A stretch of DNA of 16,885 nt from a virus. Lineage: Duplodnaviria; Heunggongvirae; Uroviricota; Caudoviricetes. The stretch lies in the IMG/VR virus record IMGVR_UViG_2531839454_000016; one strand, written 5' to 3'. The notes under the pieces are model-generated. The model ran no database searches. It was not told the origin of the DNA and saw only the letters and a program-made list of their open reading frames with translations. Position 1 is the stretch's first letter; every line of letters starts with the position of its first letter. The position numbers and the translations under genes are program-made. Below, in pieces: positions 677-16,409 of this stretch.

Positions 677-3250
677 TTACTGGACGGCGACAATCCGGTC
701 TTCATTAACTTCCAGGCGAATCACTTTACCCGGAACCAATTCACCAGACAGTATTTGCTGTGCCAGCGGGTTTTCGATCTGCTGCTGGATAGCACGTTTC
801 AAAGGACGTGCACCATAGACTGGATCGTAACCGTTCTCGCTCAGCAGTTTCAGCGCCTCGTCAGAAATGTGGATTTCATAACCACGTTCTTCCAGACGTT
901 TGTACAGACGTTTCAACTGAATCTGCGCAATCGAGGCAATGTGCTGTTCACCCAGCGGATGGAAGACCACCACTTCATCAATACGGTTAATGAATTCCGG
1001 ACGGAAGTTATGGCTTACCACACCGAGCACCAGCTCTTTCATGTGCGCATAATCCAGTTCACCGAAGCGTTCCTGAATCAAATCGGAACCGAGGTTAGAG
1101 GTCATAATGACAACCGTATTACGGAAGTCGACCGTTCTCCCCTGCCCGTCAGTCAGACGACCATCATCCAGTACCTGCAACAGAATGTTGAAGACATCCG
1201 GATGCGCTTTTTCCACTTCATCCAGCAGGATGACGGAATACGGACGACGACGCACAGCTTCGGTCAGGTAGCCACCTTCTTCATAACCGACATATCCCGG
1301 AGGCGCACCAACCAGACGAGACACCGAGTGTTTCTCCATAAACTCGGACATATCGATACGGACCATCGCCTCGTCGCTATCAAACATAAAGTTCGCCAGC
1401 GCCTTACAAAGCTCAGTTTTCCCCACACCCGTTGGGCCGAGGAACAGGAATGAACCAATCGGGCGATTTGGATCCGCCAACCCCGCACGGCTACGGCGAA
1501 TAGCGTTAGATACCGCATCAACCGCTTCGTTCTGACCAATGACGCGATGGTGCAGTTCTTGCTCCATACGCAGCAGTTTTTCGCGCTCGCTTTCCATCAT
1601 GCGAGAAACCGGAATCCCCGTCCAACGCGCCAGCACTTCAGCAATTTCGGCGTCGGTCACTTTATTACGCAACAGACGCATAGTTTTGCCTTCGAGCTGC
1701 GTTGCGGCTTCCAGTTGCTTTTCCAGTTCCGGGATTTTGCCGTATTGCAGTTCAGACATCCGCGCCAGGTCCCCCACACGGCGAGCCTGTTCAATAGCGA
1801 TTTTCGCCTGTTCCAGTTCCGCTTTAATGGTCTGCGTACCAGAAAGCGATGCCTTCTCTGCTTTCCACTCTTCTTCTAACTCGGAGTACTGACGTTCTTT
1901 GTCGCTCAGTTCTTCGTTGAGCATATCCAGGCGTTTTTTACTGGCTTCATCAGACTCTTTCATTAACGCCTGTTGTTCCAGTTTGAGCTGGATGATACGA
2001 CGATCGAGTCGGTCGAGTTCTTCTGGTTTTGAGTCAATCTGCATACGAATGCTGGATGCTGCTTCATCGATCAGGTCGATGGCTTTATCCGGCAGCTGAC
2101 GGTCAGCAATGTAGCGATGAGACAACGTCGCCGCTGCAACAATTGCCGGGTCAGTAATTTGCACATGGTGGTGCAATTCGTAACGTTCTTTCAGGCCACG
2201 CAGAATCGCAATGGTATCTTCAACAGAAGGCTCGGCAACAAACACTTTCTGGAAACGACGTTCCAGCGCAGCATCTTTTTCGATGTACTGGCGATATTCG
2301 TCAAGCGTCGTGGCACCTACGCAGTGCAATTCACCACGCGCCAGCGCCGGTTTCAGCATGTTTCCGGCGTCCATTGCGCCATCGGCTTTACCCGCGCCGA
2401 CCATGGTATGTAATTCGTCGATAAACAGGATGACGTTGCCTTCCTGTTTGGCAAGATCGTTAAGCACGCCTTTTAAACGTTCTTCAAACTCACCGCGATA
2501 TTTCGCCCCAGCCCCCAGCGCGCCCATATCCAGCGCCAGTACGCGGCGGCCTTTCAATCCTTCCGGCACTTCGCCGTTGATAATACGCTGCGCCAGACCT
2601 TCAACGATGGCAGTTTTACCGACGCCGGGTTCACCAATCAGTACCGGGTTATTTTTAGTACGACGTTGCAGCACCTGAATGGTACGGCGAATTTCTTCAT
2701 CACGACCAATCACCGGATCGAGTTTGCCCTGTTCGGCTCGTTCGGTAAGGTCGATGGTATATTTTTTCAAAGCCTGACGTTGGTCTTCAGCACCTTGATC
2801 GTTCACGCTTTCACCTCCACGCATTTGTTCAATCGCTTGAGTAATGTTGGCGGTGGTCGCCCCTGCTGCTTTCAGGATGTCGGCCAGCGTGCCGCGAGAC
2901 TCAAGTGCCGCCAGAACGAACAGTTCTGACGAGATAAAGTTATCACCACGTTTTTGCGCCAGCTTGTCGCAAAGATTAAGAACGCGCACCAGATCCTGTG
3001 ATGGCTGGACATCACCACCAGTACCTTCAACCTGCGGTAAACGATTTAATGCCTGATTGATATCTGTGCGCAACTGGCCAGCATTTATGCCAGCGGATGT
3101 TAATAAAGGACTAACCGAACCCCCTTCCTGATTCAGCAGGGCGCTCATTAAATGAAGTGGTTCGATAAATTGGTTGTCGTGCCCGAGTGCAAGTGATTGG
3201 GCATCGGCAAGAGCAAGCTGGAATTTATTAGTAAGACGATCCAGACGCAT
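677..3250 (-). CDS. clpB: ClpB disaggregase (Hsp100 AAA+ chaperone), 857 aa
   Basis: ORF 677..3262; translation from [20 protein letters not shown] to NEDRIVAVQ matches ClpB, with two AAA+ modules (GEPGVGKT and GPTGVGKT Walker A) and a coiled-coil middle domain. Start placed at the MRLDR ATG, preceded by GGGAGGAG. Confidence 0.95.
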
Positions 3251-3287
3251 AACTCCTCCCATAACGGATCAAAGTTGCTACTGGAGA

Positions 3288-3320
3288 TTAAATGAGGTCA
3301 TCCCTCAATTATTCAAGGTT
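3288..3320 (-). promoter_or_regulatory. Putative sigma32 heat-shock promoter of clpB
   Basis: Minus strand reads CTTGAATAATTGAGGGATGACCTCATTTAATC, with CTTGAA as -35 and CCTCATTTA as a sigma32-like -10 about 14 nt downstream. Confidence 0.55.
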
Positions 3321-3379
3321 ATTGACCAGATTAATGTGAAAAGAAAATCACGCGTACCGGATCGTCTTGATTCTTTAGG

Positions 3380-4111
3380 TTATATCAGCCAAATGAAACT
3401 TGCCATACGACCGGTGGTCTTGTCGCGACGATAAGAGAAGAAAGTCTCATTTTCCGTATATGTACAACGGTCGCCGCCGAAAATTTGCTCAACACCCACG
3501 TTCGCCAGACGCTGCCGGGCAAGCTGATAAATATCCGCCAGATACTTATCACCATGCTGAATGAAAGCTGCACTTGCTTTAGCGTCTACTGCCATAAACG
3601 CCTCGCGAACCTCCACCCCCACTTCGAACGCGCGTGGACCAATTGCCGGCCCTAACCAGGCGAGAATATTTTCCGGATTATCAGCAAAACAGGAAACCGT
3701 CTCTTCCAGCACGCCTGCGCACAGTCCACGCCAGCCAGCATGAGCGGCGGCGACTTCCGTTCCCGCTCGATTGCAAAACAGCACAGGGAGGCAGTCGGCA
3801 GTCATCACTGCGCAAACCGTGCCGGGCGTATTGCTATAAGAGGCATCTGCTCGTTTTGAGGCATAAGGTTCGCCAGTAAGCTTAAGCACATCTTTGCCGT
3901 GTACCTGCTCAAGCCAGACCGGTTTAGAAGGCAAATTGCCCGCAGCAAAAAGTCGCTTGCGATTCTCCTCAACGTGATCCGGGTTATCGCCACAATGGGC
4001 ACCGAGGTTGAGCGAGTCATACGGGGGCAAGCTCACGCCGCCGATACGAGAAGAGCTACAGGCCGCAACACCTTTTGGTAGCGGCCACTGCGGGACAATC
4101 AGCTTACTCAT
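3380..4111 (-). CDS. pgeF: PgeF/YfiH family protein (purine nucleoside phosphorylase / peptidoglycan editing factor), 243 aa
   Basis: ORF 3380..4111; length and gene order (clpB-yfiH-rluD) match enterobacterial yfiH; overlaps rluD by 4 nt (ATGA). Confidence 0.88.
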   Translation of the reverse strand: MSKLIVPQWPLPKGVAACSSSRIGGVSLPPYDSLNLGAHCGDNPDHVEENRKRLFAAGNLPSKPVWLEQVHGKDVLKLTGEPYASKRADASYSNTPGTVCAVMTADCLPVLFCNRAGTEVAAAHAGWRGLCAGVLEETVSCFADNPENILAWLGPAIGPRAFEVGVEVREAFMAVDAKASAAFIQHGDKYLADIYQLARQRLANVGVEQIFGGDRCTYTENETFFSYRRDKTTGRMASFIWLI

Positions 4112-5088
4112 AACCAGTCCACTTCATCCTTATGCTCTTCGAAATCGGCGCGCATCACCTCAATCAGCTCCACCATATCTTGTGGAATAGGCGCATGCCA
4201 TTCCATTTCGATGCCGGAGATCGGGTGATAAAGACGCAGCATGGTTGCATGAAGCGCCTGGCGGTCAAACTTACGCAGCATGGAGATAAATGCTTCCGAA
4301 GCACCTTTTGGCGGACGCGGACGGCCACCATAAACCGGATCGCCCACCAGCGGATGAGTGATATGGGCCATATGCACGCGGATCTGGTGCGTACGTCCAG
4401 TTTCCAGACGCAACCGCAGACGCGTGTGCACACGGAAGTGTTCCATGATGCGATAGTGAGTCACCGCCGGTTTGCCCATCGGATGCACCGCCATGTGAGT
4501 ACGTTTGGTCGGGTGGCGGCTGATGGGTTCATCTACTGTACCGCCAGCGGTCATATGACCAATCGCCACCGCTTCATACTCACGAGTAATTTCACGCCGT
4601 TGCAAAGATTCGACTAAACGCGTCTGAGCCGGAACGGTTTTTGCCACAACCATCAGGCCAGTGGTGTCTTTATCCAGACGATGGACGATGCCCGCACGTG
4701 GTACATCGGCAATGGGCGGATAGTAATGAAGCAACGCATTCAGTACCGTGCCATCCGGGTTACCCGCGCCAGGATGTACCACCAGGTCGCGCGGTTTATT
4801 AATGACGATGATATCTTCATCTTCATAGACGATATCCAGCGGGATATCCTGCGGTTCAAAACGCGCTTCTTCTTCAATCTCAGCGTTGATGGCAACCTGC
4901 TCGCCACCCAATACTTTTTCTTTCGGCTTATCACAAACTTTGCCGTTTACCAGCACGCGCTGGTCGAGGATCCATTCTTTTATTCGCGAACGTGAATAAT
5001 CCGGGAACATTTCGGCCAAAGCCTGATCTAAGCGTTGACCGAGTTGGTTTTCGGACACCGTTGCAGTGAGCTGTACTCGTTGTGCCAT
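4108..5088 (-). CDS. rluD: 23S rRNA pseudouridine synthase RluD, 326 aa
   Basis: ORF 4108..5088; RluA-family pseudouridine synthase core motif HRLDKDTTGLMVVAK with an N-terminal S4-like domain; position divergent from bamD as in E. coli. Confidence 0.9.
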   Translation of the reverse strand: MAQRVQLTATVSENQLGQRLDQALAEMFPDYSRSRIKEWILDQRVLVNGKVCDKPKEKVLGGEQVAINAEIEEEARFEPQDIPLDIVYEDEDIIVINKPRDLVVHPGAGNPDGTVLNALLHYYPPIADVPRAGIVHRLDKDTTGLMVVAKTVPAQTRLVESLQRREITREYEAVAIGHMTAGGTVDEPISRHPTKRTHMAVHPMGKPAVTHYRIMEHFRVHTRLRLRLETGRTHQIRVHMAHITHPLVGDPVYGGRPRPPKGASEAFISMLRKFDRQALHATMLRLYHPISGIEMEWHAPIPQDMVELIEVMRADFEEHKDEVDWL

Positions 5089-5222
5089 ATATACTGCTTC
5101 TTCGTTTATCGTTGGGGTTTTACGGCTTTGCCGTTTAATATAGTGTGCTATTGTAGCTGGTCTTAACCGGGAGCAGGAACAGAGAATCTCCCGTATTACA
5201 TTTTGAGGAAAGTCAAAACGTC

Positions 5223-5960
5223 ATGACGCGCATGAAATATCTGGTGGCAGCCGCCACACTAAGCCTGTTTTTGGCGGGTTGCTCGGGGTCAAAGGAAGAA
5301 GTACCTGATAATCCGCCAAATGAAATTTACGCGACTGCACAACAAAAGCTGCAGGACGGTAACTGGAGACAGGCAATAACGCAACTGGAAGCGTTAGATA
5401 ATCGCTATCCGTTTGGTCCGTATTCGCAGCAGGTGCAGCTGGATCTCATCTACGCCTACTATAAAAACGCCGATTTGCCGTTAGCGCAGGCTGCCATCGA
5501 TCGTTTTATTCGCCTTAACCCGACCCATCCGAATATCGATTATGTCATGTACATGCGTGGCCTGACCAATATGGCGCTGGATGACAGTGCGCTGCAAGGG
5601 TTCTTTGGCGTTGACCGTAGCGATCGCGATCCTCAACATGCACGAGCTGCGTTTAGTGACTTTTCCAAACTGGTACGCGGCTATCCAAACAGTCAGTACA
5701 CCACCGATGCCACCAAACGTCTGGTATTCCTGAAAGATCGTCTGGCGAAATATGAATACTCCGTGGCCGAGTACTATACAGAACGTGGCGCATGGGTTGC
5801 CGTCGTTAACCGCGTAGAAGGAATGTTGCGCGACTACCCGGATACCCAGGCTACGCGTGATGCGCTGCCGCTGATGGAAAATGCATACCGTCAGATGCAG
5901 ATGAATGCGCAAGCTGAAAAAGTAGCGAAAATCATCGCCGCAAACAGCAGCAATACATAA
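5223..5960 (+). CDS. bamD: Outer membrane protein assembly factor BamD (lipoprotein, TPR-like), 245 aa
   Basis: ORF 5223..5960; signal peptide with lipobox LAGC ([22 protein letters not shown]); matches BamD/YfiO. Confidence 0.92.
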
Positions 5961-5977
5961 CAGAAACCTGAAATACA

Positions 5978-6010
5978 AAACGGCAGCCCTTGAGCTGCCG
6001 TTTTTTTATT
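5978..6010 (+). terminator. Rho-independent terminator after bamD
   Basis: AAAACGGCAGC-CCTTGA-GCTGCCGTTTTTTTATT hairpin plus T tract. Confidence 0.75.
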
Positions 6011-6130
6011 CTGTTAGTTGTGAAACTGAAGCGATTTAGTCACTATCGATCTCATCAAATATGGCTCGCTTTGAGATATTCCTCAAGTAAAAAAACACCT
6101 CTTCCTGCGATTTCTCACAAAAAAGATTCG

Positions 6131-6160
6131 TTGACAAAAAGTGACAAAATTATGAGATTC
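6131..6160 (+). promoter_or_regulatory. Candidate raiA promoter (-35 TTGACA)
   Basis: TTGACAAAAAGTGACAAAATTATGAGATTC about 70 nt upstream of the raiA ATG; the -10 assignment is ambiguous. Confidence 0.35.
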
Positions 6161-6176
6161 CCATCACACATTTTGA

Positions 6177-6572
<396 letters not shown>

Positions 6573-6595
6573 TCCTTTATATTGAGTGTATCGCC

Positions 6596-6620
6596 AACGC
6601 GCCTTCGGGCGCGTTTTTTG
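6596..6620 (+). terminator. Rho-independent terminator after raiA
   Basis: AACGCGCC-TTCG-GGCGCGTT followed by TTTTTG. Confidence 0.75.
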
Positions 6621-6696
6621 TAAAGCTAACAAATTGTTTCTATTAGCTTATTTCTTATAAACATCCACAAACTGTCCACATCAGTAATGATATACA

Positions 6697-6722
6697 AGCC
6701 CGCAAAAAATGCGGGCTTTGTC
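6697..6722 (-). terminator. Terminator hairpin downstream of the methyltransferase gene
   Basis: AGCCCGC-AAAAAAT-GCGGGCT hairpin directly after the stop at 6723; T-rich on the minus-strand transcript. Confidence 0.6.
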
Positions 6723-7529
6723 TTATGTAGCCGAAATGGTTGTGGTAATAGTCCCCCGAAGCCGCTGCGCTGCTACCTCAAAATAATGATCACTGGTTTC
6801 TATACCAATAAATTTTCGCCCTGCTTTCAGTGCAGCCACACCCGTTGTCCCTGACCCCATAAAAGGATCAAGGACTGTTCCGCCACTATTCACAGTCCTG
6901 ACCAGTTCCGCCATTAGTTCTTCTGGTTTTCCGGTCGGGTGCATTTTCTTTGACGGGATAACCGGGTACGTCATGCAGCCGTCGAACGGCCCCGAAGGCG
7001 ATTTATCTAAATGGCCTTTGCTGCCCCAGACGATGTATTCACACTGATGCCTGAAATACCCCGTATGGGGTGTTCGTGACCCCCTCCCCTTGTTCCACGC
7101 AATGATGCCGCGCCATGTAAAGCCGCTGGCCTGAAACGCATCGGTTAAAGCTGGTAGTTGTCGCCAGTCAGTAAATACCAGGGCATAACCGCCCGGCCTG
7201 ACTGCGCGGTGTGCCTGTGCCATCCATAATTGTGTCCAGTAAGCCCACGAACGGGCGTCCATGTTTTCACCCGCGAACCCATCAAAGCGGTGAAGGTTCT
7301 CGCTGTTCAGATATTTTGCATGGCTGCCCTGGTTGGTGCGTCCGGCTTTGTGTGTCGCCCCCGAACTGTAAGGCGGGTCAGTGATTAAGGCATCAATGCT
7401 TTCTGGCTCAATCAGCGGCAATATTTCCAGCGCATTCCCACGACAGAGCGTGGCATTGTCAGTCTGATAAACCTTAGTGTGTTCCGGTGTATGTGCTGGT
7501 TGGTGCTGGATTGCGATCCCCACGGTCAT
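6723..7529 (-). CDS. DNA methyltransferase, amino-methyltransferase type (N6-adenine or N4-cytosine), 268 aa
   Basis: ORF 6723..7529; DPPY catalytic motif near the N-terminus (LITDPPYSSG) and AdoMet-binding FxGxG near the C-terminus (DPFMGSGTTG); ATG preceded by SD GAGGAG. Confidence 0.8.
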   Translation of the reverse strand: MTVGIAIQHQPAHTPEHTKVYQTDNATLCRGNALEILPLIEPESIDALITDPPYSSGATHKAGRTNQGSHAKYLNSENLHRFDGFAGENMDARSWAYWTQLWMAQAHRAVRPGGYALVFTDWRQLPALTDAFQASGFTWRGIIAWNKGRGSRTPHTGYFRHQCEYIVWGSKGHLDKSPSGPFDGCMTYPVIPSKKMHPTGKPEELMAELVRTVNSGGTVLDPFMGSGTTGVAALKAGRKFIGIETSDHYFEVAAQRLRGTITTTISAT

Positions 7530-7671
7530 AACTCCTCATGTGTGTGGGGTGCTCGATGGCTCTCGTTATCTGGTTAAGTGTTTTGCAGCGCGGACATTTT
7601 ATTTCAATGTAGTGAAATGAGGCGCGGGCAAGTAGTTTGTTGCAATTTTTGCATCGTACATTTTGCGTCAT
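7474..7671 (-). CDS. Com-like zinc-finger protein (phage Mu Com family translational activator), about 65 aa
   Basis: ORF 7474..7680; RCKNCNKLLA...HYIEIKCPRCKTLNQI closely resembles Mu Com (C-x2-C...C-x2-C). Its 3' end overlaps the methyltransferase start by 56 nt. ATG at 7671 preceded by AAGAGG; alternative GTG start at 7680. Confidence 0.7.
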   Translation of the reverse strand: MTQNVRCKNCNKLLARASFHYIEIKCPRCKTLNQITRAIEHPTHMRSYDRGDRNPAPTSTYTGTH

Positions 7672-7710
7672 TTGCGGCACCTCTTGTGTGGTTACTGCTG
7701 CCGATATGAT

Positions 7711-7760
7711 AACAAATCGATCGCTTTTATCGATCGGATTTATTGCATCGATCTGTTATG
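7711..7760 (-). promoter_or_regulatory. Cluster of three GATC (Dam) sites in repeated TCGATC motifs upstream of com; candidate methylation-sensitive operator/promoter
   Basis: GATC at 7719-7722, 7732-7735 and 7750-7753 within 35 bp, each inside TCGATCG/TCGATCT, 40-80 bp upstream of the com start. Confidence 0.45.
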
Positions 7761-7810
7761 CCTATTACTTATGAATGGTGTTACCCTCATTTATGAGGGC
7801 AACAAAAAGA

Positions 7811-7838
7811 AAACCCGCAGTTTTTACGCTGCGGGTTT
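7811..7838 (-). terminator. Rho-independent terminator after the zinc-ribbon/TM2 gene
   Basis: Minus transcript reads ACCCGCAG-CGTAAAAA-CTGCGGGT followed by TTTCTTTTTGTTG. Confidence 0.7.
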
Positions 7839-7863
7839 GTCATTCTGATTCGCCCACTAGGCA

Positions 7864-8160
7864 TTAGCCATATTTGCGGGCAAAGTCTTCATCAGAGGTG
7901 CATAGATAGATAAAAAACTCAATAAATGCCACGATTGCCGGAATGAATGTCCAGCAAAAAATAAGGTAAAGGAATCCTTGCCCCACTTTACCTAAATAAA
8001 ATTTGTGTGCACCAAGACCACCTAAAAAGAAAGCCAGTAGTGCGGCTGTCATTCTGCTTTTTGAACTTGCTGTTCTTTGAGGTGCTCCACAATTGGGGCA
8101 GGATGTGGCATCTTTATGTATTTCCTTGCCGCATCCGCGACAAAATACCATTTCACTCAT
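7864..8160 (-). CDS. Small membrane protein with N-terminal zinc ribbon and C-terminal TM2 domain, 98 aa, function unknown
   Basis: ORF 7864..8160; CRGCGKEIHKDATSCPNCG zinc ribbon; TM2 signature LLAFFLGGLGAHKFYLGKVGQGFLYL with two predicted TM helices; SD AAGGAA upstream. Confidence 0.7.
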   Translation of the reverse strand: MSEMVFCRGCGKEIHKDATSCPNCGAPQRTASSKSRMTAALLAFFLGGLGAHKFYLGKVGQGFLYLIFCWTFIPAIVAFIEFFIYLCTSDEDFARKYG

Positions 8161-8295
8161 AAAGAGTTCCTTTCAAATTTAAATAAGCGTTAAGCCCACC
8201 ACTCTTACTGGTGGGCCTCAATTTAAATTTGGGTGCCACTTCGACCATACCCTGGCAACCGATTGACGGGGGATTGCTCCCCCGTCGCGGTTTCC

Positions 8296-8436
8296 TTACT
8301 GCTTACACTGTAAGAACGCCGCAAACTCCGCTCCCCAGAAGCTCATCCGTATTTCACACAGCGAACCGTGCAGCATCCAGATGATGAGGATTACCGTCAC
8401 GCAGAACGTGATGGCCGTAAGCGATTTTTGCGACAT
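8296..8436 (-). CDS. Hok/Gef-family small membrane toxin homologue, 46 aa
   Basis: Hand translation of the minus strand gives MSQKSLTAITFCVTVILIIWMLHGSLCEIRMSFWGAEFAAFLQCKQ: a hydrophobic TM helix followed by the Hok signature SLCEIR...E.AAFL.CK. SD AAGGAG lies 8 nt upstream. Below the 60-aa cut-off of the ORF track. Confidence 0.75.
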   Translation of the reverse strand: MSQKSLTAITFCVTVILIIWMLHGSLCEIRMSFWGAEFAAFLQCKQ

Positions 8437-8627
8437 AGCGCTTGCTCCTTTGTTGGAGAGGCGCTAACCTATCACTTGCTTAAGGTAGATATGTTAGGGC
8501 CTCGGTTAAACAGAAATGTTTTCCGGGGCCTTTCCACATCTGGCCTTCGGGTATTCCCTCCGACCATCAGCCGAAAGGCACCCGCGCGTAATCTATCGCT
8601 TTTTTGTTACTCCGGCAATTCTGCCTG

Positions 8628-8888
8628 TTAATTCTGAGATAAAGGCAAACTCATCTGATTGTTTCCCCTGTGTGAAGCTGGCAGCTCATGCCACGGGATA
8701 CCTTCTGAAGAGTGAACGCCGGAGGCGTGTTTTGATGTGAATTTATGGAAAGCTTCCAGTGTTGAGAAGCATACGCCGCATTCCAGATTGTTACACTGGT
8801 AATACTTTTGCCGCACGGTGTTTGAATCATTTTCCGGACGACTGGTGCGGATACGGGCAGATGCGCCACAAAGCGGACAACGGAACAT
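8628..8888 (-). CDS. ogr: Ogr/Delta-family zinc-finger late transcription activator, 86 aa
   Basis: ORF 8628..8888; MFRCPLCGASARIRTSR...YYQCNNLECGVCF matches the P2 Ogr C-x2-C...C-x4-C motif; strong SD GGGAGG; located directly downstream of gpD as in P2. Confidence 0.85.
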   Translation of the reverse strand: MFRCPLCGASARIRTSRPENDSNTVRQKYYQCNNLECGVCFSTLEAFHKFTSKHASGVHSSEGIPWHELPASHRGNNQMSLPLSQN

Positions 8889-8930
8889 AGCGACCTCCCT
8901 TAACGTGGTGCTGCCGCTATTCTAAGTTGC

Positions 8931-10040
8931 TCACTCTGTTTCCGCTATCCATTCCGGGATTTTTGCCTCAAGCTCAAGCTGCGTGGTAAAGCCGCTGTTA
9001 TCAATGGTGTGCTCGGCTTTTGCAATAATCCAGTCCTGATTATCAATCTCGCTTTTAAATCCTGTTACCGTGCCATGCATTTCGGGGTAGAGTTCTGCTC
9101 GTCCACGTGCCAGCGTGATGGAGAATGATGCGGCTCCGCGTTGTAGTTGTTGCCACTTTGCCGCCGCTGCGCGTCTTGCTGCCTGCTCGTTCTGATAAGT
9201 CTTGCGTAACACAAACACATTGCCTTCCGCGCCTTCCATATAATCACCTTCACGGCTGCTGCTTTTCTCCTTTTTGGGTTTTGGCGGTTTGCGGCGTTTC
9301 ACGCTGACTTTTTTCTTTTTCCCGTAATTAAGATCAAGCCAGTAGGCGCGTACCCCCGTATACGCCTCGCGGTCAGCAATGCGGAACTGATGGCGATCGC
9401 CGCTGCTGCGTGTAATGGCGAACGAGGGCAACGGCTGGCCCTGTGCGTTCACGCCACCGCCTGGCATAATGAATAACAGATTGCCGCTTTTTACCGTGGT
9501 GATTGCGCCCAGCATTTCCGCCATGCGCGTAAGGAAGGACATGTCGCTTTCTTCGGTCTGGTCGGCGTGGTCGATTTCGATATCCATCAGCATTTCGCTG
9601 ATTTGCGGTTTCAGACCGTACCGATGAGCGATGGCGGATACCACGCGCTCAACGGTCACATCATGCCAGGACACCTCACGTTTAACGTTAAATTCATCCC
9701 GAAAATCTGCGCTTCTGGCTGAAACAGTCAGCCTGTCCGGCGGTCCTTCGTGAGCGATTTCATCAACAATGTAAGTGCCTTTTTCTGTCAGCGGTTCTCC
9801 TTTCCAGCCAATGAGAACCGTCAGGCGCGCGCCCCGTGGCGGTAGCTGCAACTGACCATCCGCATCATCCAGCGTGATGGTGAGCTGGTCCGCCTCAAAT
9901 CCCCGGTTGTCGGTCAGTGACAGGCTCATCAGGCGCTCTGCCACGCCTGACAGCGTTTTACCCTCCGCGAGAATATCAAAATCCGGCATTTTCACGGGGT
10001 CTGTGCCCTGACTGAGCAATTGCATGGTGGTGTCGGTCAT
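8931..10040 (-). CDS. Phage tail protein D (P2 gpD, late control D family), about 370 aa
   Basis: ORF 8931..10172; start placed at MTDTTMQLL (ATG 10040-10038) preceded by GGGAGGGAG; size and sequence character match P2 gpD. Confidence 0.85.
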   Translation of the reverse strand: MTDTTMQLLSQGTDPVKMPDFDILAEGKTLSGVAERLMSLSLTDNRGFEADQLTITLDDADGQLQLPPRGARLTVLIGWKGEPLTEKGTYIVDEIAHEGPPDRLTVSARSADFRDEFNVKREVSWHDVTVERVVSAIAHRYGLKPQISEMLMDIEIDHADQTEESDMSFLTRMAEMLGAITTVKSGNLLFIMPGGGVNAQGQPLPSFAITRSSGDRHQFRIADREAYTGVRAYWLDLNYGKKKKVSVKRRKPPKPKKEKSSSREGDYMEGAEGNVFVLRKTYQNEQAARRAAAAKWQQLQRGAASFSITLARGRAELYPEMHGTVTGFKSEIDNQDWIIAKAEHTIDNSGFTTQLELEAKIPEWIAETE

Positions 10041-10197
10041 CTGCTCCCTCCCTGTGTGGCATGGTCGCATGTGCGTGCGGAGGGGGTTACTGCTTTTTGT
10101 TGTCGCCGTGGCGGGAGAATGGCGCAGGGGTGAGATTACGCGCGTGGTGGGTGATGATTGTTGCCGAATCATTTAACGGATACAAGGGGCTGAAGCT

Positions 10198-11382
10198 ATG
10201 AGTGAAACTCGTTTTCATGGTGCCCGTGTTACGGAAAATACCGACCTGGTAACAGCGATTAACGATGTTGATTCCAGCGTTATCGGTATCGTGGCAACGG
10301 CGGATGATGCGGACGCGAAGCTGTTCCCGCTGAACAAGCCCACACTGCTGACCCGCGTCAATGACGTGCTGGGAAAATGCGGGACAACGGGGACGCTTTA
10401 TCGTGCGCTTAAGGCCATCGCAGACCAGGTGAGCACAAAGGTGATCGTCGTTCGCGTGGCTGAACACAAAGAAGAAGACGAAAAGACGCAGGATCAACTG
10501 GTTATCGGTGGTTCTGAGGATGACGGCAGCTATACGGGGATGTATGCGCTGCTTGTTGCAGAGCAGGATGAAAGCATCGGATACCGTCCGCGTATTCTGG
10601 CCGCGCCGGAGCTGGACACGGAGGCTGTAACAAAATCCCTGTGCGTGATTGCAGGTAAACTGCGCGCGTTTGTGTATGCCTCATGTCACGGCTGTAATAC
10701 GATGGCTGAGGCGATTACCTACCGCCAGAAATTCAACGAACGTGAGGGGATGCTCCTATGGCCGGACTTCATCGCCTACAACCCGAAAAGTGGCAAAAAC
10801 GAAACGTTCCCCGCGCCTGCCTATGCGTGCGGCCTTCGTGCGTACATTGACCATGAGCAGGGATGGCACAAATCACTGTCCAACGTTCCGGTTAAAAATG
10901 TGCTGGGGATGTCGAGGCATGTGTTCTGGTCGTTGCAGGCCGAAGACAGCGATGCCAACAGCCTCAACAACAAAGAAATCACGACCATTATTCGTCGCAA
11001 CGGGTTCCGATTCTGGGGCAACCGCACACCGGAAACGAACGCCTACATCTTTGAGGTGTATACCCGAACCGCACAGGTGCTGGCTGATTCAATTGCGGAA
11101 GCGCAGTTTGAAACCATCGACAGTCCACTGACGCCTGCGAACGTGAAGGATGTTATCAGTGCCATCAGGGCAAAACTGGATTCACTGGTTACTGCCGGGA
11201 AACTGATTGGCGCGGAGTGCTGGTATGACGTGGTGGATAATAGCACCACGGATTTACGTCAGGGGCGTGTGCGTATTCGCTACAAATATACGCCCGTTCC
11301 GCCACTGGAAGACATGGAGCTTTACCAGACGTTTACTGATGAATACTTTGAACCCGCATTTGCGGTGCTGGGAGGTGCCTGA
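10198..11382 (+). CDS. Contractile tail sheath protein (P2 FI-like), 394 aa
   Basis: ORF 10198..11382; size and position (before tube and E/T/U) match P2 FI; C-terminus overlaps the next start (TGATG). Confidence 0.9.
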   Translation: MSETRFHGARVTENTDLVTAINDVDSSVIGIVATADDADAKLFPLNKPTLLTRVNDVLGKCGTTGTLYRALKAIADQVSTKVIVVRVAEHKEEDEKTQDQLVIGGSEDDGSYTGMYALLVAEQDESIGYRPRILAAPELDTEAVTKSLCVIAGKLRAFVYASCHGCNTMAEAITYRQKFNEREGMLLWPDFIAYNPKSGKNETFPAPAYACGLRAYIDHEQGWHKSLSNVPVKNVLGMSRHVFWSLQAEDSDANSLNNKEITTIIRRNGFRFWGNRTPETNAYIFEVYTRTAQVLADSIAEAQFETIDSPLTPANVKDVISAIRAKLDSLVTAGKLIGAECWYDVVDNSTTDLRQGRVRIRYKYTPVPPLEDMELYQTFTDEYFEPAFAVLGGA

Positions 11383-11894
11383 TGGCTGTGCCAAAACATC
11401 TTCGCTTTTTTACGCTGTTTGTGGATGGTGAAAACGAAGTGGGTAAGGTGACGTCCGTCACTCTACCTAAGCTGACGCGCAAAACCGACAGCTACCGGGG
11501 TGGTGGCATGATGGGTGCGGTAAGTATTGATCTCGGTCTGGACGACTCCGCGCTTGATGCGAGCTTTGTCATGGGGGGCGCAGTTCGTGAGCTGTTCCTT
11601 AAGTATGGCGGCACGATTGACGGCACGCTGCTGCGTTTTGCGGGTGAATACTACACCGATGCAGAAAGCGACCTGTATGAAGTCGAAATGCGCGGACGTG
11701 TGACGGAAATTGATATGGGGGAAGCCAAACAGGGCGAAGCCACATCACACACTTACGCCATTAAAAACACCTACTACAAGCTGAGTGTTAACGATCGCCC
11801 GTTGTGGGAGATTGACCTGCTGAACTTCATTTACCGGAAGGACGGCAAGGACATTGTGCCTGACCGTATCCGTTCCGCGCTCGGGCTTGGCTGA
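11382..11894 (+). CDS. Tail tube protein (P2 FII-like), 170 aa
   Basis: ORF 11382..11894; size and position match P2 FII; SD GGGAGGTG. Confidence 0.9.
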   Translation: MAVPKHLRFFTLFVDGENEVGKVTSVTLPKLTRKTDSYRGGGMMGAVSIDLGLDDSALDASFVMGGAVRELFLKYGGTIDGTLLRFAGEYYTDAESDLYEVEMRGRVTEIDMGEAKQGEATSHTYAIKNTYYKLSVNDRPLWEIDLLNFIYRKDGKDIVPDRIRSALGLG

Positions 11895-11949
11895 TAAGTA
11901 ATATGCAGGCGGCGCAGTGCGTCGCCTCTGACTGAAAAGGAGAAAACTG

Positions 11950-12324
11950 ATGAAAGACATCGATACTGAAACCCGGAATAACACCGTGGCGGATGATGTG
12001 ACGGCAGGTGAGGATATGGCTGTCGAACGTGGCGTAAAACTGACCCGACCAATTGAGCGTGGTGGCGAAAAAATCACGTATGTGGAGATCACCGGGGCTA
12101 TTGAACAGGCTGGATCCCTGCGTGGTCTGTCGCTGTCTGATGTGCTGAATCTGAAAGCGGATACCATGTTCACGCTGTTGCCTCGCGTGACCTCGCCACG
12201 ACTGGATGAAGTGATGATTAAAAAAATGTCGTCACGCGATTTTATTCAGTTGTGCGCTGTGGCTGTAAATTTTATGAGCGAGCCAGACTCTGGCGCGAAG
12301 AGCGCGCAGGAGACGGCAGCGTAA
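11950..12324 (+). CDS. Tail assembly chaperone (P2 gpE-like), 124 aa
   Basis: ORF 11950..12324 between tube and tape-measure genes; SD AAGGAG; gpE-like pattern (L..PI.RGG..I..V.I...G.LRG.SL.D). Confidence 0.75.
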   Translation: MKDIDTETRNNTVADDVTAGEDMAVERGVKLTRPIERGGEKITYVEITGAIEQAGSLRGLSLSDVLNLKADTMFTLLPRVTSPRLDEVMIKKMSSRDFIQLCAVAVNFMSEPDSGAKSAQETAA

Positions 12325-12488
12325 TCACCCTGGTGTGCTTTGAGCACATCGAAGATCTGGTGGCAGATATCGCCGCCATTTTTAACTGGTCGCCCGCCGA
12401 AATCTTCATGATGACGCCCGGCGAAGTGGTTAGCTGGCGTGAGCGGGCGGCACTTCGCAGCGGGAATGCAGACAATGAAGACTCTTGA
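11950..12488 (+). CDS. Predicted E+E' fusion chaperone made by -1 programmed ribosomal frameshift near the end of E
   Basis: The -1 frame is open from 12222 to the stop at 12486-12488, overlapping the last 34 codons of E and ending at the tape-measure start. An A7 run (12220-12226) in the E frame is a candidate slippery site. Confidence 0.5.
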
Positions 12489-15282
12489 TATCCGGGTCGC
12501 TTTCAGCGCCGTTGACAGGCTGACCCGGCCTGCCGAAAACGCCCGCCGCCTGATGGGGCAGTTTGGTGACTCCATCCAGCGAACGCAGGGGGCGATCAAA
12601 AATCTCGAGCGTCAGGCGCGTTCATTTGAGCGCGCCCGTGACGCTGTCAGTAAAGCGGATGCGGGCATCGTGAAAGCACGACGCCAGCTTAACGCCCTTA
12701 ATCAGTTACAACGCACGGGTACAGTGCTCAGCGAAAAACAACAAAAGCTGATGCAGCAGTTAAGCACCCGGCTTGAACGCCTGAATGAATCGCGCACACG
12801 GGAAATTCAGAAAATGCGGGAACTTGGCGGAGAGCTGAAACGCCACGGCATTTCCCTGACAGGCAGCGATAACACCATCCAGCAGGCCATCAGACGCACC
12901 GAACAGTACAACAACCAGCTTGAACGCGAACGGCAGGCGCTTGCGCGTGTAACACGTGCGCGTGAGCGGTATTCGCGCGCGCAGGAAACCGCGGGAAAAC
13001 TGAAAACAGGTGGTGCGCTGGCAATTGGTGCGGCAGCGGCTGGCAGCTATGCTGCCGGGCGTTTTTTGCAGCCTGCGATCGGGTTCGGGAAAGAGATGTC
13101 CCGCGTTCAGGCACTGACGCGAATCGACAAAAACAGCCCGCAGTTTAAGGCGCTGCGTGAGCAGGCGTTAAAACTTGGCTCTGAAACGCAGTTCACCGCA
13201 GGCGATGCCGCCAGTGGGCAGGCATTTCTTGCAATGGCTGGCTTCACACCGCAGGCCATTCAGGCTGCGCTTCCGGGCGTGCTGAGCATGGCAACGGCTG
13301 GCGGTATGGATCTCGGCGAGACGGCGGATATTGGCTCAAATATCCTGACGCAGTTCGGCCTTTCTGCTGACCAGATGGACCGGGTCGGTGACACACTTAC
13401 CGCAGCGTTTACCCGTACCAACACTGACCTTCGCGCACTGGGTGAAACCATGAAATATGCAGGTCCGGTGGCGGGTAAGCTGGGAATATCGCTGGAGCAG
13501 GCCGCAGCGATGGCGGGCGTGCTGGCGAATATGGGTATCAGGGGTAGTGATGCTGGTACGGCAATGCGTGCCAGCCTGGCTCGTCTGGCATCACCGCCAA
13601 AGGCGGCAGCAGAGGCGCTGAAAGAGCTTGGCGTGTCTGTCTCGGATGCCGGGGGCAAAATGCGCCCGATGGAGGATGTGCTGGCTGACCTTTATAAAGC
13701 CACCCGCAAATACGGGGAAGTTGACCGGGTATCGTTCTTTAAGGACATTGCCGGAGAAGAGGCTTTCACATCATTTATGGCCCTCGTTGATGCGGCAGGT
13801 GACGGCTCCTTACCCAAACTGAGAAAAGAACTTGAAGGTGCGCGCGGTGAGGCTGAACGCACGGCAAAGGTTATGGCCAATAACCTTGATGGCGACCTGA
13901 AATCACTCGGCAGTGCATGGGAAGGGCTGCGTATCCGCATTGCAGATCTGATTGATGGTCCGCTGCGTTCTGTCACGCAGTGGCTCACGCGGGTGGTCTC
14001 AAAGGTGACGGCGCTGGCACAGGCCCATCCGGTACTGACGCGCCAGTTACTGATAGCAGGCGGTGCGCTGCTGGCAATGACTGCAACGGTTGGCTCGTTG
14101 TCGCTGGTTATTGGAGTGCTTCACGGGAAGCTGGCCACGTTGCGTCTTGGTTTTTCTCTCCTGACCGGATCAATGAATGCTGTCAGGGTTCTGCCTGCAT
14201 TATGGGGAATGGTGACAGGCTCCATCTCGTTACTGGGAGGCGCTGTCGGGGCGCTGTTCAGTCCGGTCGGGTTGATTGCTGCAGCGTTTGTCGCTGCGGC
14301 GGTTCTCATCTGGAAATACTGGGAACCCATCAAGGCGTTTTATGCCGGGGTGTTCAGTGGGATTATGGAAAGGCTGACCCCGTTGCGCGAAACCTTTGAA
14401 CGGTTTAGTCCTGTTTTTGACGCAATCGGGAGTGGGATCAGCCAGGTGTTTAACTGGTTTAAATCGCTGCTGTCACCGATGGAGTCCAGCAAGGAAACTC
14501 TGGATAAATGTACCAGTGCTGGCGAGATATTCGGTAACGTTCTTGGCGGTGCGTTACAACTTGTTCTGACACCTGCAAAAATGTTGCTGGATACGCTGGC
14601 GTGGATACTTGAAAAGCTTGGTGTGCTTCCGGATGAAGCGGAAAGGGCGCGCAAGAAAATCGAAGACGCACAGCGTGCGGCCATTCTTCAGGACAAGGTT
14701 GCCTTGCTTCAGGGGGACCTGGCGAAAATCAATCCGCCGAAGCCTGTGGAAAATGGCAATGGCACCGGAGGTGATAACCCCAAAGACAATAAACCGCTCA
14801 CAGACAGCAATACCGGTACGCTGCGCAGACTCAGCAAAATTGCTGATAACACAGGTAAGCTGGTTGAGGAGACGAAAAAACGCATTGGCCCCGGCGATAT
14901 TGTCTTTAAAAACCTGCCCCGGGCACTTGCTGTTCGTGGGGAGTGGCAGGAGCGGAAGATTGCGCAGGTCAGTAAGCCTGCCCCCGCAATTAATATCACA
15001 CCCGTGGTCCCGGCTCCGCTGCCTCCGGCGCTGGTCACTGTTGTTGCGGCCAGCTCCCGCCCGGTGGCGGAGGCTATACGATCTCCAGTGGCATCAGTTC
15101 CTGTAACTTCCCGTAACCGGGAGCCTGTTGCCTCCGAATTTGGTGGTGAAATTCATGTTCATCTGCATAACGTTGTTACGCAGAATCCCCGCGAACTGGC
15201 GAAACTGGTCGGTGAAATGGTCAGGGCAGAAATGGAACGGCGCGCCCGTGCCGGGCGTGGCAGTTTTTACGATAAAGATTGA
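12466..15282 (+). CDS. Tail tape measure protein (P2 gpT-like), about 939 aa
   Basis: ORF 12439..15282; long alpha-helical protein with a central hydrophobic segment and Gly/Ala-rich stretches typical of tape-measure proteins; sits between the E/E' chaperone and gpU. Start ambiguous (GTG 12439, ATG 12466 or ATG 12475). Confidence 0.85.
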   Translation: MQTMKTLDIRVAFSAVDRLTRPAENARRLMGQFGDSIQRTQGAIKNLERQARSFERARDAVSKADAGIVKARRQLNALNQLQRTGTVLSEKQQKLMQQLSTRLERLNESRTREIQKMRELGGELKRHGISLTGSDNTIQQAIRRTEQYNNQLERERQALARVTRARERYSRAQETAGKLKTGGALAIGAAAAGSYAAGRFLQPAIGFGKEMSRVQALTRIDKNSPQFKALREQALKLGSETQFTAGDAASGQAFLAMAGFTPQAIQAALPGVLSMATAGGMDLGETADIGSNILTQFGLSADQMDRVGDTLTAAFTRTNTDLRALGETMKYAGPVAGKLGISLEQAAAMAGVLANMGIRGSDAGTAMRASLARLASPPKAAAEALKELGVSVSDAGGKMRPMEDVLADLYKATRKYGEVDRVSFFKDIAGEEAFTSFMALVDAAGDGSLPKLRKELEGARGEAERTAKVMANNLDGDLKSLGSAWEGLRIRIADLIDGPLRSVTQWLTRVVSKVTALAQAHPVLTRQLLIAGGALLAMTATVGSLSLVIGVLHGKLATLRLGFSLLTGSMNAVRVLPALWGMVTGSISLLGGAVGALFSPVGLIAAAFVAAAVLIWKYWEPIKAFYAGVFSGIMERLTPLRETFERFSPVFDAIGSGISQVFNWFKSLLSPMESSKETLDKCTSAGEIFGNVLGGALQLVLTPAKMLLDTLAWILEKLGVLPDEAERARKKIEDAQRAAILQDKVALLQGDLAKINPPKPVENGNGTGGDNPKDNKPLTDSNTGTLRRLSKIADNTGKLVEETKKRIGPGDIVFKNLPRALAVRGEWQERKIAQVSKPAPAINITPVVPAPLPPALVTVVAASSRPVAEAIRSPVASVPVTSRNREPVASEFGGEIHVHLHNVVTQNPRELAKLVGEMVRAEMERRARAGRGSFYDKD

Positions 15283-15294
15283 GGAGTCATGGCC

Positions 15295-15783
15295 ATGATG
15301 ATGATCTACGGCATGTTTGTTTTTGAGCTGCGCACGCTGCCGCATCAGCAGTTACAGCAAAACAAAAGCTGGCGGCATGTGAAAAATGAACGCATTAACC
15401 GTTCAGCAAGCTGGCAGTATATCGGTGCAGGTGATGATCGCATCGTTCTTTCTGGTGTGCTTTATCCTGAAATTACAGGTGGCGAAGTGTCGCTGTCGCT
15501 GCTGACCACGCAGGCTTATACAGGACGACCCTGGCCTTTGATTGATGGCGTCGGGCAGATTTACGGCATGTATGTCCTGACTGGAACGAATACGACCCGT
15601 TCCGAGTTTGATCGCTACGGTAAGGCGAAAAAGATAGAATTTTCACTGACCCTTGAACGCTGTGATGAGGATTTGCGGGAGCGCCTGCAATCCTCATCGT
15701 TCAGTGATATGCTGTCCGGCTTCAAAGATAAGGTCACATCATCCCTTAACAGCGCGGCCAGCTCCGTTAAAGGGCTGTTTTGA
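15295..15783 (+). CDS. Tail protein U (P2 gpU-like), about 162 aa
   Basis: ORF 15289..15783; MMIYGMFVFELRTLP... resembles the P2 gpU N-terminus; SD GAGGAG at 15281-15286 favours the ATG at 15295. Confidence 0.85.
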   Translation: MMMIYGMFVFELRTLPHQQLQQNKSWRHVKNERINRSASWQYIGAGDDRIVLSGVLYPEITGGEVSLSLLTTQAYTGRPWPLIDGVGQIYGMYVLTGTNTTRSEFDRYGKAKKIEFSLTLERCDEDLRERLQSSSFSDMLSGFKDKVTSSLNSAASSVKGLF

Positions 15784-15790
15784 TTAACGC

Positions 15791-15820
15791 AAAACCGCTA
15801 ATGGTCAGATTAGCGGTTTT
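15791..15820. terminator. Perfect 12-bp hairpin between the convergent gpU and invertase genes (likely bidirectional terminator)
   Basis: AAAACCGCTAAT-GGTCAG-ATTAGCGGTTTT followed by CATTTTCC on the plus strand; overlaps the last codons of the invertase. Confidence 0.6.
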
Positions 15821-16409
15821 CATTTTCCTGAGTCTGCCTGGTTGTTTCTTCAGCCTGTATATCGCCTACAGGGTGATAACGATAAATCGTCGATATGCCG
15901 ATGTCGTAAATGATCGCCAGTTGTTTCCTGTCATGACCGTTTTTAATCAGCCTCGCTATTTGCTCGTGTTGTTCTTTTGTCAACTTCGGGCGACGTCCGC
16001 CAATGCGTCCTTGTGCGCGTGCTGCTGCCAGCCCGGCCAGGGTACGCTCTACAATTAATTCACGTTCCATTTCGGCTAAAGCCCCCATGACGTGAAAAAA
16101 GAAACGCCCCATGGGTGTTGATGTGTCAATGCTGTCCGTCAGACTACGGAAATTAACACCTTTTTCCCGCAATTCCTCAATAAGCGTGATCAGGTGTTTC
16201 ATACTTCTGCCCAGTCTGTCCAGCTTCCAGACAACCAGCGTATCTCCTTCTGATAGCGTTCTGATCAGTTTTTTCAATCCCGGTCTGGCTGATTTCGTTC
16301 CGCTGATTTTATCTTCAAAAATTAGTTCACATCCTGCGCACTCCAGCGCGTTACGCTGCAATTCTGTATTCTGGTCATTTGTTGATACGCGGACATAGCC
16401 AATAAGCAT
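15810..16409 (-). CDS. Serine-recombinase DNA invertase (Hin/Gin/Pin/Cin family), 199 aa
   Basis: ORF 15810..16409; MLIGYVRVSTNDQNTELQRNAL...VVWKLDRLGRSMKHL...GRRPKL is near-identical in pattern to e14 Pin and Mu Gin, including the catalytic serine and C-terminal HTH. Confidence 0.92.
   Translation of the reverse strand: MLIGYVRVSTNDQNTELQRNALECAGCELIFEDKISGTKSARPGLKKLIRTLSEGDTLVVWKLDRLGRSMKHLITLIEELREKGVNFRSLTDSIDTSTPMGRFFFHVMGALAEMERELIVERTLAGLAAARAQGRIGGRRPKLTKEQHEQIARLIKNGHDRKQLAIIYDIGISTIYRYHPVGDIQAEETTRQTQENENR

Follow-up and report, generated by a model that had tools for sequence, protein, structure and literature searches.

Which signals decide when a prophage DNA methyltransferase is made? 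The question is raised by a stretch of viral DNA of 16,885 nucleotides (IMG/VR record IMGVR_UViG_2531839454_000016, Caudoviricetes; this whole stretch is called the window here), in which a small zinc-finger gene resembling com of phage Mu runs into the start of a methyltransferase gene and three GATC sites lie just upstream. An earlier note on this DNA had proposed that the arrangement reproduces the control of mom in Mu, with the methyltransferase under both epigenetic control of transcription (Dam methylation acting through OxyR) and Com-dependent control of translation, and with expression probably restricted to the lytic cycle. Our comparison with known systems supports the dual control through Com homology, a Com RNA motif, a start-codon hairpin, the GATC spacing and OxyR consensus scores. 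Taken as one joint explanation, it seems quite probable that the com-methyltransferase cassette is a self-contained accessory unit (a moron) at the ogr-att end of a P2-like E. coli prophage, and that its methyltransferase is under Mu-like dual control by a Dam/OxyR operator and a Com/RNA switch. The restriction to the lytic cycle is not supported.

Com and the methyltransferase

The two genes of the cassette and their motifs are as follows.

7671..7474, minus strand: com, from ATG 7671, 65 aa, a zinc ribbon of CCCC type
7686-7681, minus strand: Shine-Dalgarno (SD) sequence of com, AAGAGG
7529..6723, minus strand: methyltransferase gene, 268 aa from AUG 7529 or 266 aa from GUG 7523
7379-7368, minus strand: DPPY motif, residues 51-54
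6863-6849, minus strand: FMGSG motif, residues 223-227

The small gene is indeed Com-like. Its product matches the Pfam family PF10122 Zn_ribbon_Com (E 9.5e-12, 44.6 bits against a cut-off of 22.9) and PHROG 13819 "gpCom" (2e-17), and over residues 3-43, the zinc finger, it shares 59.5% identity with Mu Com, its cysteines at 7, 10, 26 and 29 aligning with Cys 6, 9, 26 and 29 of that protein. The open reading frame as listed by program is 7680..7474 with a GTG start, and ATG 7671 is probably the true start of com. The tail of the protein is disordered apart from a conserved A-x-E-H-P-T, which is a protein-level trace of the RNA element beneath it. The RefSeq protein WP_001353016.1 is identical to Com here and is named a DNA-binding transcriptional regulator; this is at odds with the established role of Com, which in Mu is an RNA-binding translational activator (PMC6483171, PMC3299994), and the product name is misleading.

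The downstream gene had been read as a DPPY/FxGxG amino-methyltransferase rather than Mom, and this reading holds: the protein matches PF01555 N6_N4_Mtase (2.3e-33, 116.4 bits against a cut-off of 26.7) and has both motifs, in the order IV (DPPY) then I (FMGSG) that marks the beta class. We rejected Mom (PF25680) as its identity, as no Mom profile matches the window protein while Mu Mom and the cargo of locus L012 reach ~253 bits (loci used for comparison carry L numbers). The enzyme has 48% identity to the com-linked one of the P2-like Stenotrophomonas phage Smp131 and 40-47% to those of P2-like phages from Burkholderia and Ralstonia and of some actinophages, and the relatives in the Protein Data Bank (PDB) include chains deposited as DpnA (5hek/5hfj), CcrM and M.MboIIA. 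A search of NCBIfam with the methyltransferase reached no equivalog threshold. Of the possible modifications N6-adenine is favoured, because the catalytic motif is DPPY, not SPPY, and because adenine enzymes match better than N4-cytosine enzymes.

A candidate operator over a predicted promoter

The elements that bound and precede the two genes are the following.

7716..7765, minus strand: candidate Dam/OxyR-type operator, with GATCGAT repeats at 7753-7747, 7735-7729 and 7722-7716
7706..7733, minus strand: predicted sigma-70 promoter, with -35 TCGATA at 7733-7728, a 16-nt spacer and -10 TATCAT at 7711-7706
7838..7811, minus strand: intrinsic terminator, a 10-bp stem with 6 GC pairs, then a T-run
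6696..6718, strand unassigned: GC-rich hairpin directly after the methyltransferase stop, at the end of both cassette and prophage

The three GATC sites lie at 7719, 7732 and 7750, within 35 bp and upstream of com, as the earlier note had placed them, and each is part of a GATCGAT. Read on the minus strand they start at 7753, 7735 and 7722, which gives a spacing of 18 and 13 nt, identical to that of the Mu mom operator (1160/1178/1191 of L003), and over a 40-nt operator block 30 of the 40 positions (75%) are those of Mu. The agn43 gene of E. coli K-12, the other classical Dam/OxyR switch (PMC13076061, PMC2808357), has a spacing of 19/13 and a final repeat GATCGAT as found here. The promoter-proximal half of the operator in the window is a perfect ATCG-N7-CGAT. 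The E. coli host carries both Dam and OxyR, as enterobacterial hosts of com loci do.

The predicted promoter is the only promoter-like site in 6400-8300. With its TGn at 7714-7712 it has an extended -10 and is near-consensus, and its hexamers are identical in L089, L009, L096-L101 and the isolated phage Chuche. Relative to this promoter the GATCs would stand at about -54, -36 and -23 and the operator at about -57 to -21, so that OxyR, once bound, would block access to the core promoter in the way known from agn43. The terminator at 7838..7811, which is conserved in relatives and closes the TM2/hok/ogr genes, appears to insulate the cassette from these upstream genes. At the other end, the hairpin at 6696..6718 is terminator-like on the plus strand and has a weaker T-run on the minus strand, with raiA beyond it.

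Is this arrangement one of late, lytic expression, as for mom in Mu, such that a phage activator of the Ogr or C type is needed besides Dam methylation? There are reasons to ask: mom in Mu is a late function harmful to the host (PMC3299994), the methyltransferases M.EcoGI and M.EcoGII of other prophages are silent in lysogens (PMC5778455), and ogr itself lies ~1 kb upstream of the com cassette in the same orientation. The anatomy of the control region argues otherwise. The Mu operator lies ~30 nt farther upstream of a weak promoter that depends on the phage C protein. The 28-nt segment of Mu that holds the C site and this promoter, with its poor -35 and 19-bp spacer, is absent from the window, where 51 nt separate the third GATC from the com ATG (78 nt in Mu), and the motif TTAT-N6-ATAA, which we take to be the C-activator site of Mu, is missing upstream of com. 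No Ogr-type TGT-N12-ACA box precedes com either, the single match in the window (7579-7596) being inside com; we rejected it as an Ogr box on account of this position and of a number of matches below the chance expectation. With a near-consensus promoter, an extended -10 and a strong terminator upstream, the unit resembles an autonomous moron set between a terminator and a terminator-like hairpin, so that the anatomy lends the lytic-only expression proposed in the earlier note no support, and we consider it unlikely. Constitutive expression in Dam+ cells, or a heritable ON/OFF state as at agn43, is at least as likely as lytic-only expression.

Chance and conservation of the GATC cluster

A different possibility is that the GATC cluster is a relic or an accident, the promoter constitutive and the Com/RNA layer the only functional one. 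GATC is not enriched in the window (55 sites found, 63 expected), and when 55 sites are placed at random in 17 kb, three of them fall within 35 bp in ~24% of cases; we therefore rejected density by itself as a measure of the significance of the cluster. It is also the case that L010, L092 and L093, which are without the cluster, retain the -10, com and the methyltransferase. The spacing is another matter. At the observed density an exact 18/13 spacing would arise by chance with a frequency of ~1e-5 per anchoring GATC, and it is the spacing of two experimentally established OxyR/Dam operators (Mu with 18/13 and agn43 with 19/13).

The bases around the GATCs point the same way. The OxyR tetramer consensus, which is said to go back to work by Toledano and colleagues in 1994 and reportedly reads ATAGnTnnnAnCTAT-N7-ATAGnTnnnAnCTAT (a 37-mer with 20 defined positions), was scanned over ~33,700 positions on both strands. 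The six best matches in the window all fall in 7716-7765, with 15, 15 and 14 of the 20 positions matched on each strand; the best score elsewhere in the window is 13, and the known sites of Mu and agn43 score 13 and 14.

Conservation was examined in relatives of increasing distance. Six E. coli genomes were sampled so as to span the range of identity, and all of them keep the 18/13 triple, while the flanking palindrome and other flanking bases vary or are deleted there, and the triple is likewise kept in Chuche, in the Salmonella locus L009 and in the E. coli locus L089, whose Com is 76% identical. An 18/13 or 19/13 triple also stands upstream of com-mom in two other enterobacterial genomes, and L004, L011 and L090, which have other cargoes, show a two-GATC form (13 nt apart, ATCG-N7-CGAT) equally far from com. 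The claim that the GATC spacing is conserved in homologous loci is thus borne out, in every sampled E. coli relative and in enterobacterial loci. The cluster is confined to enterobacterial com loci: none of operator type was found in ~55 non-enteric ones (Neisseria, Acinetobacter, Pseudomonas, Methylophaga etc.). Judged from these sequences, what goes beyond chance is the 18/13 spacing shared with Mu, together with the position upstream of com and the conservation in relatives, and a relic or accidental cluster seems distinctly improbable.

The Com RNA motif and a predicted start-codon hairpin

The second layer of the proposed control lies in the mRNA, within the overlap of the two genes and just before it.

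7548..7564, minus strand (mRNA): Com recognition motif GAGAGCCAUCGAGCACC, inside the 3' part of com
7518..7549, minus strand: predicted translation-inhibition hairpin, outer stem CCCCAC (7549-7544) with GUGGGG (7523-7518)
7540-7536 and 7531-7527, minus strand: predicted inner stem of the hairpin, CAUGA with UUAUG
7537-7532, minus strand: SD of the methyltransferase, GAGGAG, with its GGAG in the tetraloop

Selection in vitro (SELEX) has given Mu Com two motifs, GAGNNCC(N)2-3GAGNNCC, which is bipartite, and CC(N)2-3GAG for the loop, and the Mu Com site lies directly 5' of a translation-inhibition hairpin that holds the mom GUG in its stem (region GAAUGCCUGCGAGCAUCCCACGGAG; PMC6483171). In the window, GAGAGCCAUCGAGCACC at 7564-7548 is a full match to the bipartite motif, and matches the loop motif as well, at a site homologous to that of Mu. 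Among 73 distinct com loci, 55 have GCC-N2-3-GAGC at a stereotyped place just past the zinc finger, where 0.02 occurrences per locus would be expected.

Directly after the motif, the predicted hairpin pairs both AUG 7529 and the conserved GUG 7523, and a Com RNA site thus precedes what the folding models as a start-sequestering structure, as in Mu. The earlier note had asked whether the SD at about 7532-7540 is sequestered in secondary structure. In the predicted fold the AUG and GUG of the start region are both paired, and the GGAG of the SD lies in the tetraloop. The local fold has a minimum free energy of −17.5 kcal/mol (z -2.26), and its helix recurs in the centroid of a 261-nt fold; the 261-nt whole-transcript fold is no stabler than shuffled sequences (z -0.48), which leaves the local hairpin as the one part that stands out. 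Folding predicts the CCCAC/GUGGG helix for each of the 12 enterobacterial loci in which the motif was located, whatever the cargo, and separate folding predicts the same helix in L093, which the motif search had missed. In an alignment of 11 distinct sequences, 93% of the cells are paired, compared with 31-55% when the partners are slid, and the closing pair covaries from C-G to U-A. In other clades the motif is followed by unlike hairpins that bury the SD or the start (GCGUCAC/GUGACGC, GCAUCC/GGAUGC, GCAUCG/CGAUGC). An Rfam search of 6400-9000 found no family for the Com site or hairpin, with weak sub-threshold matches only.

The hairpin also bears on where the methyltransferase begins. The 56-nt overlap with com given in the earlier note is correct when counted from AUG 7529 (7529-7474+1), and the main start is probably GUG 7523, for which the overlap is 50 nt (7523..7474), as in Mu (1408..1457). 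We prefer the GUG because the SD is 8 nt from it and 2 nt from the AUG, and because in L089, L004 and L011 the GUG is either the start that was called or the one start available, and in Mu it is that of mom: the relative L089, which is without the AUG, is called at the GUG, the C5-methyltransferase cargoes of L004 and L011 also start there, and in Mu the GUG is the experimentally accepted start of mom (PMC6483171). The GenBank entry of Mu (L003, NC_000929; 1378-1410) lets the mom coding sequence begin at an ATG 30 nt upstream of the hairpin GUG, and the annotated com/mom overlap of 80 nt therefore exceeds the functional one of 50 nt.

It could be argued that translation of the methyltransferase is simply coupled to that of com, and that Com has some other role, for example that of a DNA-binding regulator, as its RefSeq name has it. 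Indeed, com is read through the whole hairpin and stops 50 nt past the GUG. This reading has little to say about the SELEX-defined motif, which stands at the homologous position here as in the 55 of 73 com loci, and in the FluMu-type locus L067 the motif is intergenic after a com of 39 aa, where coupling cannot act. Together with the RNA-binding, translation-activating role of Mu Com (PMC6483171, PMC3299994), these observations leave coupling as a rather remote explanation.

Proposed mechanism

The dual control that we favour would proceed as follows. In the transcriptional layer, which we infer from the operator, OxyR would bind the unmethylated GATCs and occlude the promoter, whereas Dam methylation of these sites would exclude OxyR and allow com and the methyltransferase to be transcribed together. 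That the clustered GATCs act instead through SeqA sequestration of hemimethylated DNA after replication is very improbable, for although SeqA binds clustered hemimethylated GATCs and could bind three of them within 35 bp, the flanking bases too fit the OxyR half-site ATCG-N7-CGAT and the 40-nt block shares 75% of its positions with the OxyR site of Mu. In the translational layer, which we infer from homology to Mu, the hairpin would pair GUG 7523 and AUG 7529, hold the SD in a small loop and so block translation of the methyltransferase; Com made from the same mRNA would bind the GAG..CC..GAG motif 5' of the hairpin and open it, and the methyltransferase would be made only once Com has accumulated. 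The enzyme would then methylate phage and host DNA, by which the progeny may be shielded from restriction in the next host, as with Mom and the Hia5-type enzymes.

Several observations weigh against this mechanism. On the side of transcription there is, besides the chance frequency of GATC triples given above, the loss of the operator in L010 and L092 through a deletion between GATCGAT repeats and its absence in L093 and L094, from which it follows that the operator is dispensable for retention of the cassette. On the side of translation, the stem is nearly invariant and offers a single covarying pair within the enterobacterial set, and the 5' arm of the hairpin is also constrained by the com codons for His-Pro-Thr. 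The mini-hairpin that presents the motif is weaker than that of Mu, with a predicted 3-bp CGA/UCG stem and a different hexaloop. Finally, translation of com takes ribosomes through the hairpin, and these could unfold it with no help from Com.

The deletions in L010 and L092 are of use in their own right. L010 (1480-1601) retains one GATC and L092 (1-117) none, by recombination between GATCGAT repeats, and both deletions put TAGGCA at the -35 while TGn-TATCAT stays, which makes them natural controls for an OxyR/Dam test.

A further step would be a heritable Dam/OxyR ON/OFF switch in lysogens, in which a subpopulation expresses com and the methyltransferase from a module that is portable among unrelated enzymes. 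This is conceivable because, as at agn43, the operator lies over a promoter that is strong and needs no activator, and we put it forward tentatively, as a possibility rather than as the expected behavior.

Comparison with known systems and probable exchange of cargo

The nearest counterpart is com-mom of Mu itself. Shared with it are the Com sequence (59.5%), the 18/13 GATC spacing, the 30 identical positions of the 40-nt block and the 50-nt overlap, as well as the succession of GCC-NNN-GAGCA and, directly after it, the CCCAC/GUGGG hairpin with its GUG start; com and cargo are co-transcribed in both, and both cassettes lie at the end of a phage genome. There are also differences. The cargo of Mu is Mom, of acyltransferase fold (PF25680), whereas that of the window is a Rossmann-fold, beta-class enzyme of PF01555, and Mu is a transposable phage whereas the host phage here is P2-like. 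In Mu the operator is at about -89 to -53 relative to a weak promoter that requires an activator, in contrast to about -57 to -21 over a near-consensus sigma-70 promoter here, and the cassette of the window, unlike that of Mu, has an extra in-frame AUG two codons 5' of the GUG and is without a C site. At agn43 (flu), three GATCs in an OxyR site likewise overlap the core promoter and OxyR represses directly (PMC13076061); that system differs in controlling an autotransporter adhesin with no Com layer, and in that phase variation is demonstrated there and a possibility only here.

The replacement of mom by a methyltransferase behind com is already published (FluMu, Pnm1, B3, KS5; PMC3299994, PMC3091744). 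Mu-like prophages of Haemophilus and Neisseria have com followed by non-specific adenine methyltransferases that replace mom and prevent cutting by many restriction enzymes (Drozdz et al. 2012, PMC3299994). Named among them are Hin1523 (FluMu), Nma1821 (Pnm1) and Hia5, and the Com ORF47 and methyltransferase ORF48 of phage B3 are cited in the same paper (PMC3299994). As in the window, a Com homologue precedes a DPPY/FxGxG methyltransferase in the place of mom, with a presumed anti-restriction role, and the H. influenzae locus L067 also has the Com RNA motif upstream of the methyltransferase start. Unlike the window enzyme, with its DPPY at residues 51-54, the Hia5-type enzymes are Dam-related and have DPPY in the C-terminal half (Asp194, PMC3299994), and the alpha order, FxGxG before DPPY, is found in the com-linked enzymes of L067 and of Acinetobacter (L026 etc.). 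With motif order I-IV there and IV-I here, we rejected membership in the Hia5/Hin1523 family, and the likeness is one of functional analogy only; kinship with B3 ORF48, which is unrelated in sequence to the window methyltransferase, was also rejected. The Hia5-type com loci further differ in having no GATC operator, and the Haemophilus com is shorter (39 aa in ComHia and L067) and does not overlap the methyltransferase. The non-specificity of the Hia5-type enzymes was shown experimentally, whereas the window enzyme is known from its sequence.

Closer in phage type is KS5, a Burkholderia P2-like phage whose "Com translational regulator" overlaps an "N-4/N-6 DNA methylase" (gp21/gp20; Lynch et al., PMC3091744). 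Both KS5 gp21/gp20 and Smp131 gp05/gp04 resemble the window in that the phage is P2-like and com runs into the beginning of a methyltransferase gene of family PF01555. The position differs, the KS5 cassette being between tail genes and that of Smp131 beside the portal gene and not at the ogr-att end, and the KS5/Smp131/B3 group has no Mu-type GATC triple, unlike the window. M.EcoGI and M.EcoGII are non-specific adenine methyltransferases of prophages, with the beta-class DPPY...FxGxG order, silent in lysogens and thought to act against restriction (PMC5778455). We rejected identity with them on account of their length (349 aa against 268) and their lambdoid prophages, setting them apart by these features rather than by direct sequence comparison; a whole-word search of PMC5778455 for "Com" gave 0 matches. 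The methylome papers that were checked do not mention the cassette, and the literature searches returned no description of an E. coli P2-like com-methyltransferase cassette, of its Mu-type operator or of its compact promoter.

Within the enterobacteria, the com module carries cargoes of three kinds, namely Mom (PF25680), C5 methyltransferases (PF00145) and beta-class enzymes (PF01555). A Val-Gly start (GUG-GGN) is common to these unrelated enzymes, always after the shared hairpin, which suggests that cargo is exchanged by recombination just downstream of the hairpin, and com, hairpin and GUG-GGN together appear, in the loci compared, to behave as a portable control module. Examples are L004 (1501-2750) and L011 (1601-2900), in which com, the same hairpin and GUG-GGG are fused to C5-cytosine methyltransferases (PF00145, 2e-42); a Mu-like phage inserted in an Stx2c phage harbours one of these and Citrobacter braakii the other, and both have two-GATC operators.

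Prophage context and distribution

Of the window, 677-6572 is E. coli chromosome, with clpB, yfiH, rluD, bamD and raiA, and the end of a P2-like (Peduoviridae) prophage begins beside it at ~6700. The genes upstream of the cassette are these.

10172..8931, minus strand: tail gene D
8888..8628, minus strand: ogr
8436..8296, minus strand: hok
8160..7864, minus strand: TM2/zinc-ribbon gene

The order on the minus strand toward the attachment site is thus D, ogr, hok, the TM2/zinc-ribbon gene, the terminator, the com-methyltransferase cassette and the GC-rich hairpin.

The 1.56-kb cassette region is found at at least 99% identity in dozens of E. coli genomes, where RefSeq labels the two genes "Com family DNA-binding transcriptional regulator" and "DNA-methyltransferase". 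In Chuche, whose cassette is 95.6% identical, they are annotated as "gpCom control of modification" and "DNA methyltransferase". A query of com with its upstream region was covered to at least 80% in 163 of 5426 complete E. coli genomes (~3%). About 470 further E. coli genomes, with P2-like prophages that are without the cassette, share the upstream terminator only, and the cassette can therefore be regarded as an accessory insert in a common prophage backbone. It is also found in L010 (NZ_JBQPOM010000071.1), a contig labelled Vagococcus sp. WN89Y, a Gram-positive genus; its Com is 92% identical to the E. coli Com and its flanks are enterobacterial in type, and the contig is probably a case of contamination or mis-binning.

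The neighbouring genes carry some further points of interest. The hok-family toxin gene (8436..8296, minus strand) matches NCBIfam HokA at 6e-9 and is overlapped by a sok-like antisense RNA region at 8426-8583 (Rfam RF01794, 47.9 bits, under the gathering score of 59), so that a hok/sok-like pair, a type I toxin-antitoxin moron, is sited between ogr and the com cassette. The TM2 gene (7864-8160, minus strand) encodes 98 aa in which a TM2 membrane domain (PF05154, 5.5e-19) is combined with a zinc ribbon at the N terminus; it is present in part of the relatives and missing in L097-L100, where hok directly precedes the com cassette. Between the upstream terminator and the operator lies a 26-bp near-perfect palindrome, TGTTGCCCTCATAAATGAGGGTAACA, at 7779-7804, both arms of which vary in relatives with most of the pairing retained (fully in L097, less so in L096), and which is missing, by deletion, from L099, L100 and Chuche. 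The palindrome could represent another hairpin or the site of a bound protein. Farther away, the tail genes FI-FII-E-T-U are on the plus strand (10198..15783), divergent from D-ogr on the minus strand, a layout that Chuche shares, whereas in P2 itself these tail genes form one co-directional block. A gene for a Cin/Gin-type invertase follows the tail genes at 16409..15810.

Implications

Taken together, these comparisons suggest that the whole control module of Mu mom (operator, com, Com RNA site and start-codon hairpin) has moved as a unit into P2-like prophages and has there been joined to a different class of DNA-modifying enzyme. What is fairly new is the complete Mu module in a P2-like prophage, the candidate OxyR operator over a strong promoter and the evidence for swapping of cargo at the hairpin. 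The analysis also corrects the likely start codon of the methyltransferase and a misleading RefSeq name, and the natural variants with operator deletions can be used for testing the switch.

If com, hairpin and GUG-GGN do form a portable module, it would carry Mom and C5, alpha and beta methyltransferases, swapped just after the start codon. If the switch exists, the prophage would bring with it a phase-variable methylome, a "phasevarion" driven by competition between Dam and OxyR and not by repeat slippage, and host and prophage DNA would already be methylated before induction. If the adenine of GATC or ATCGAT were also among the targets of the enzyme, its own promoter would be locked in the ON state. 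Control of this kind may explain why prophage methyltransferases are silent or variable in methylome surveys, and a promoter that is phase-variable in lysogens would be an unusual route to heterogeneity of the E. coli methylome.

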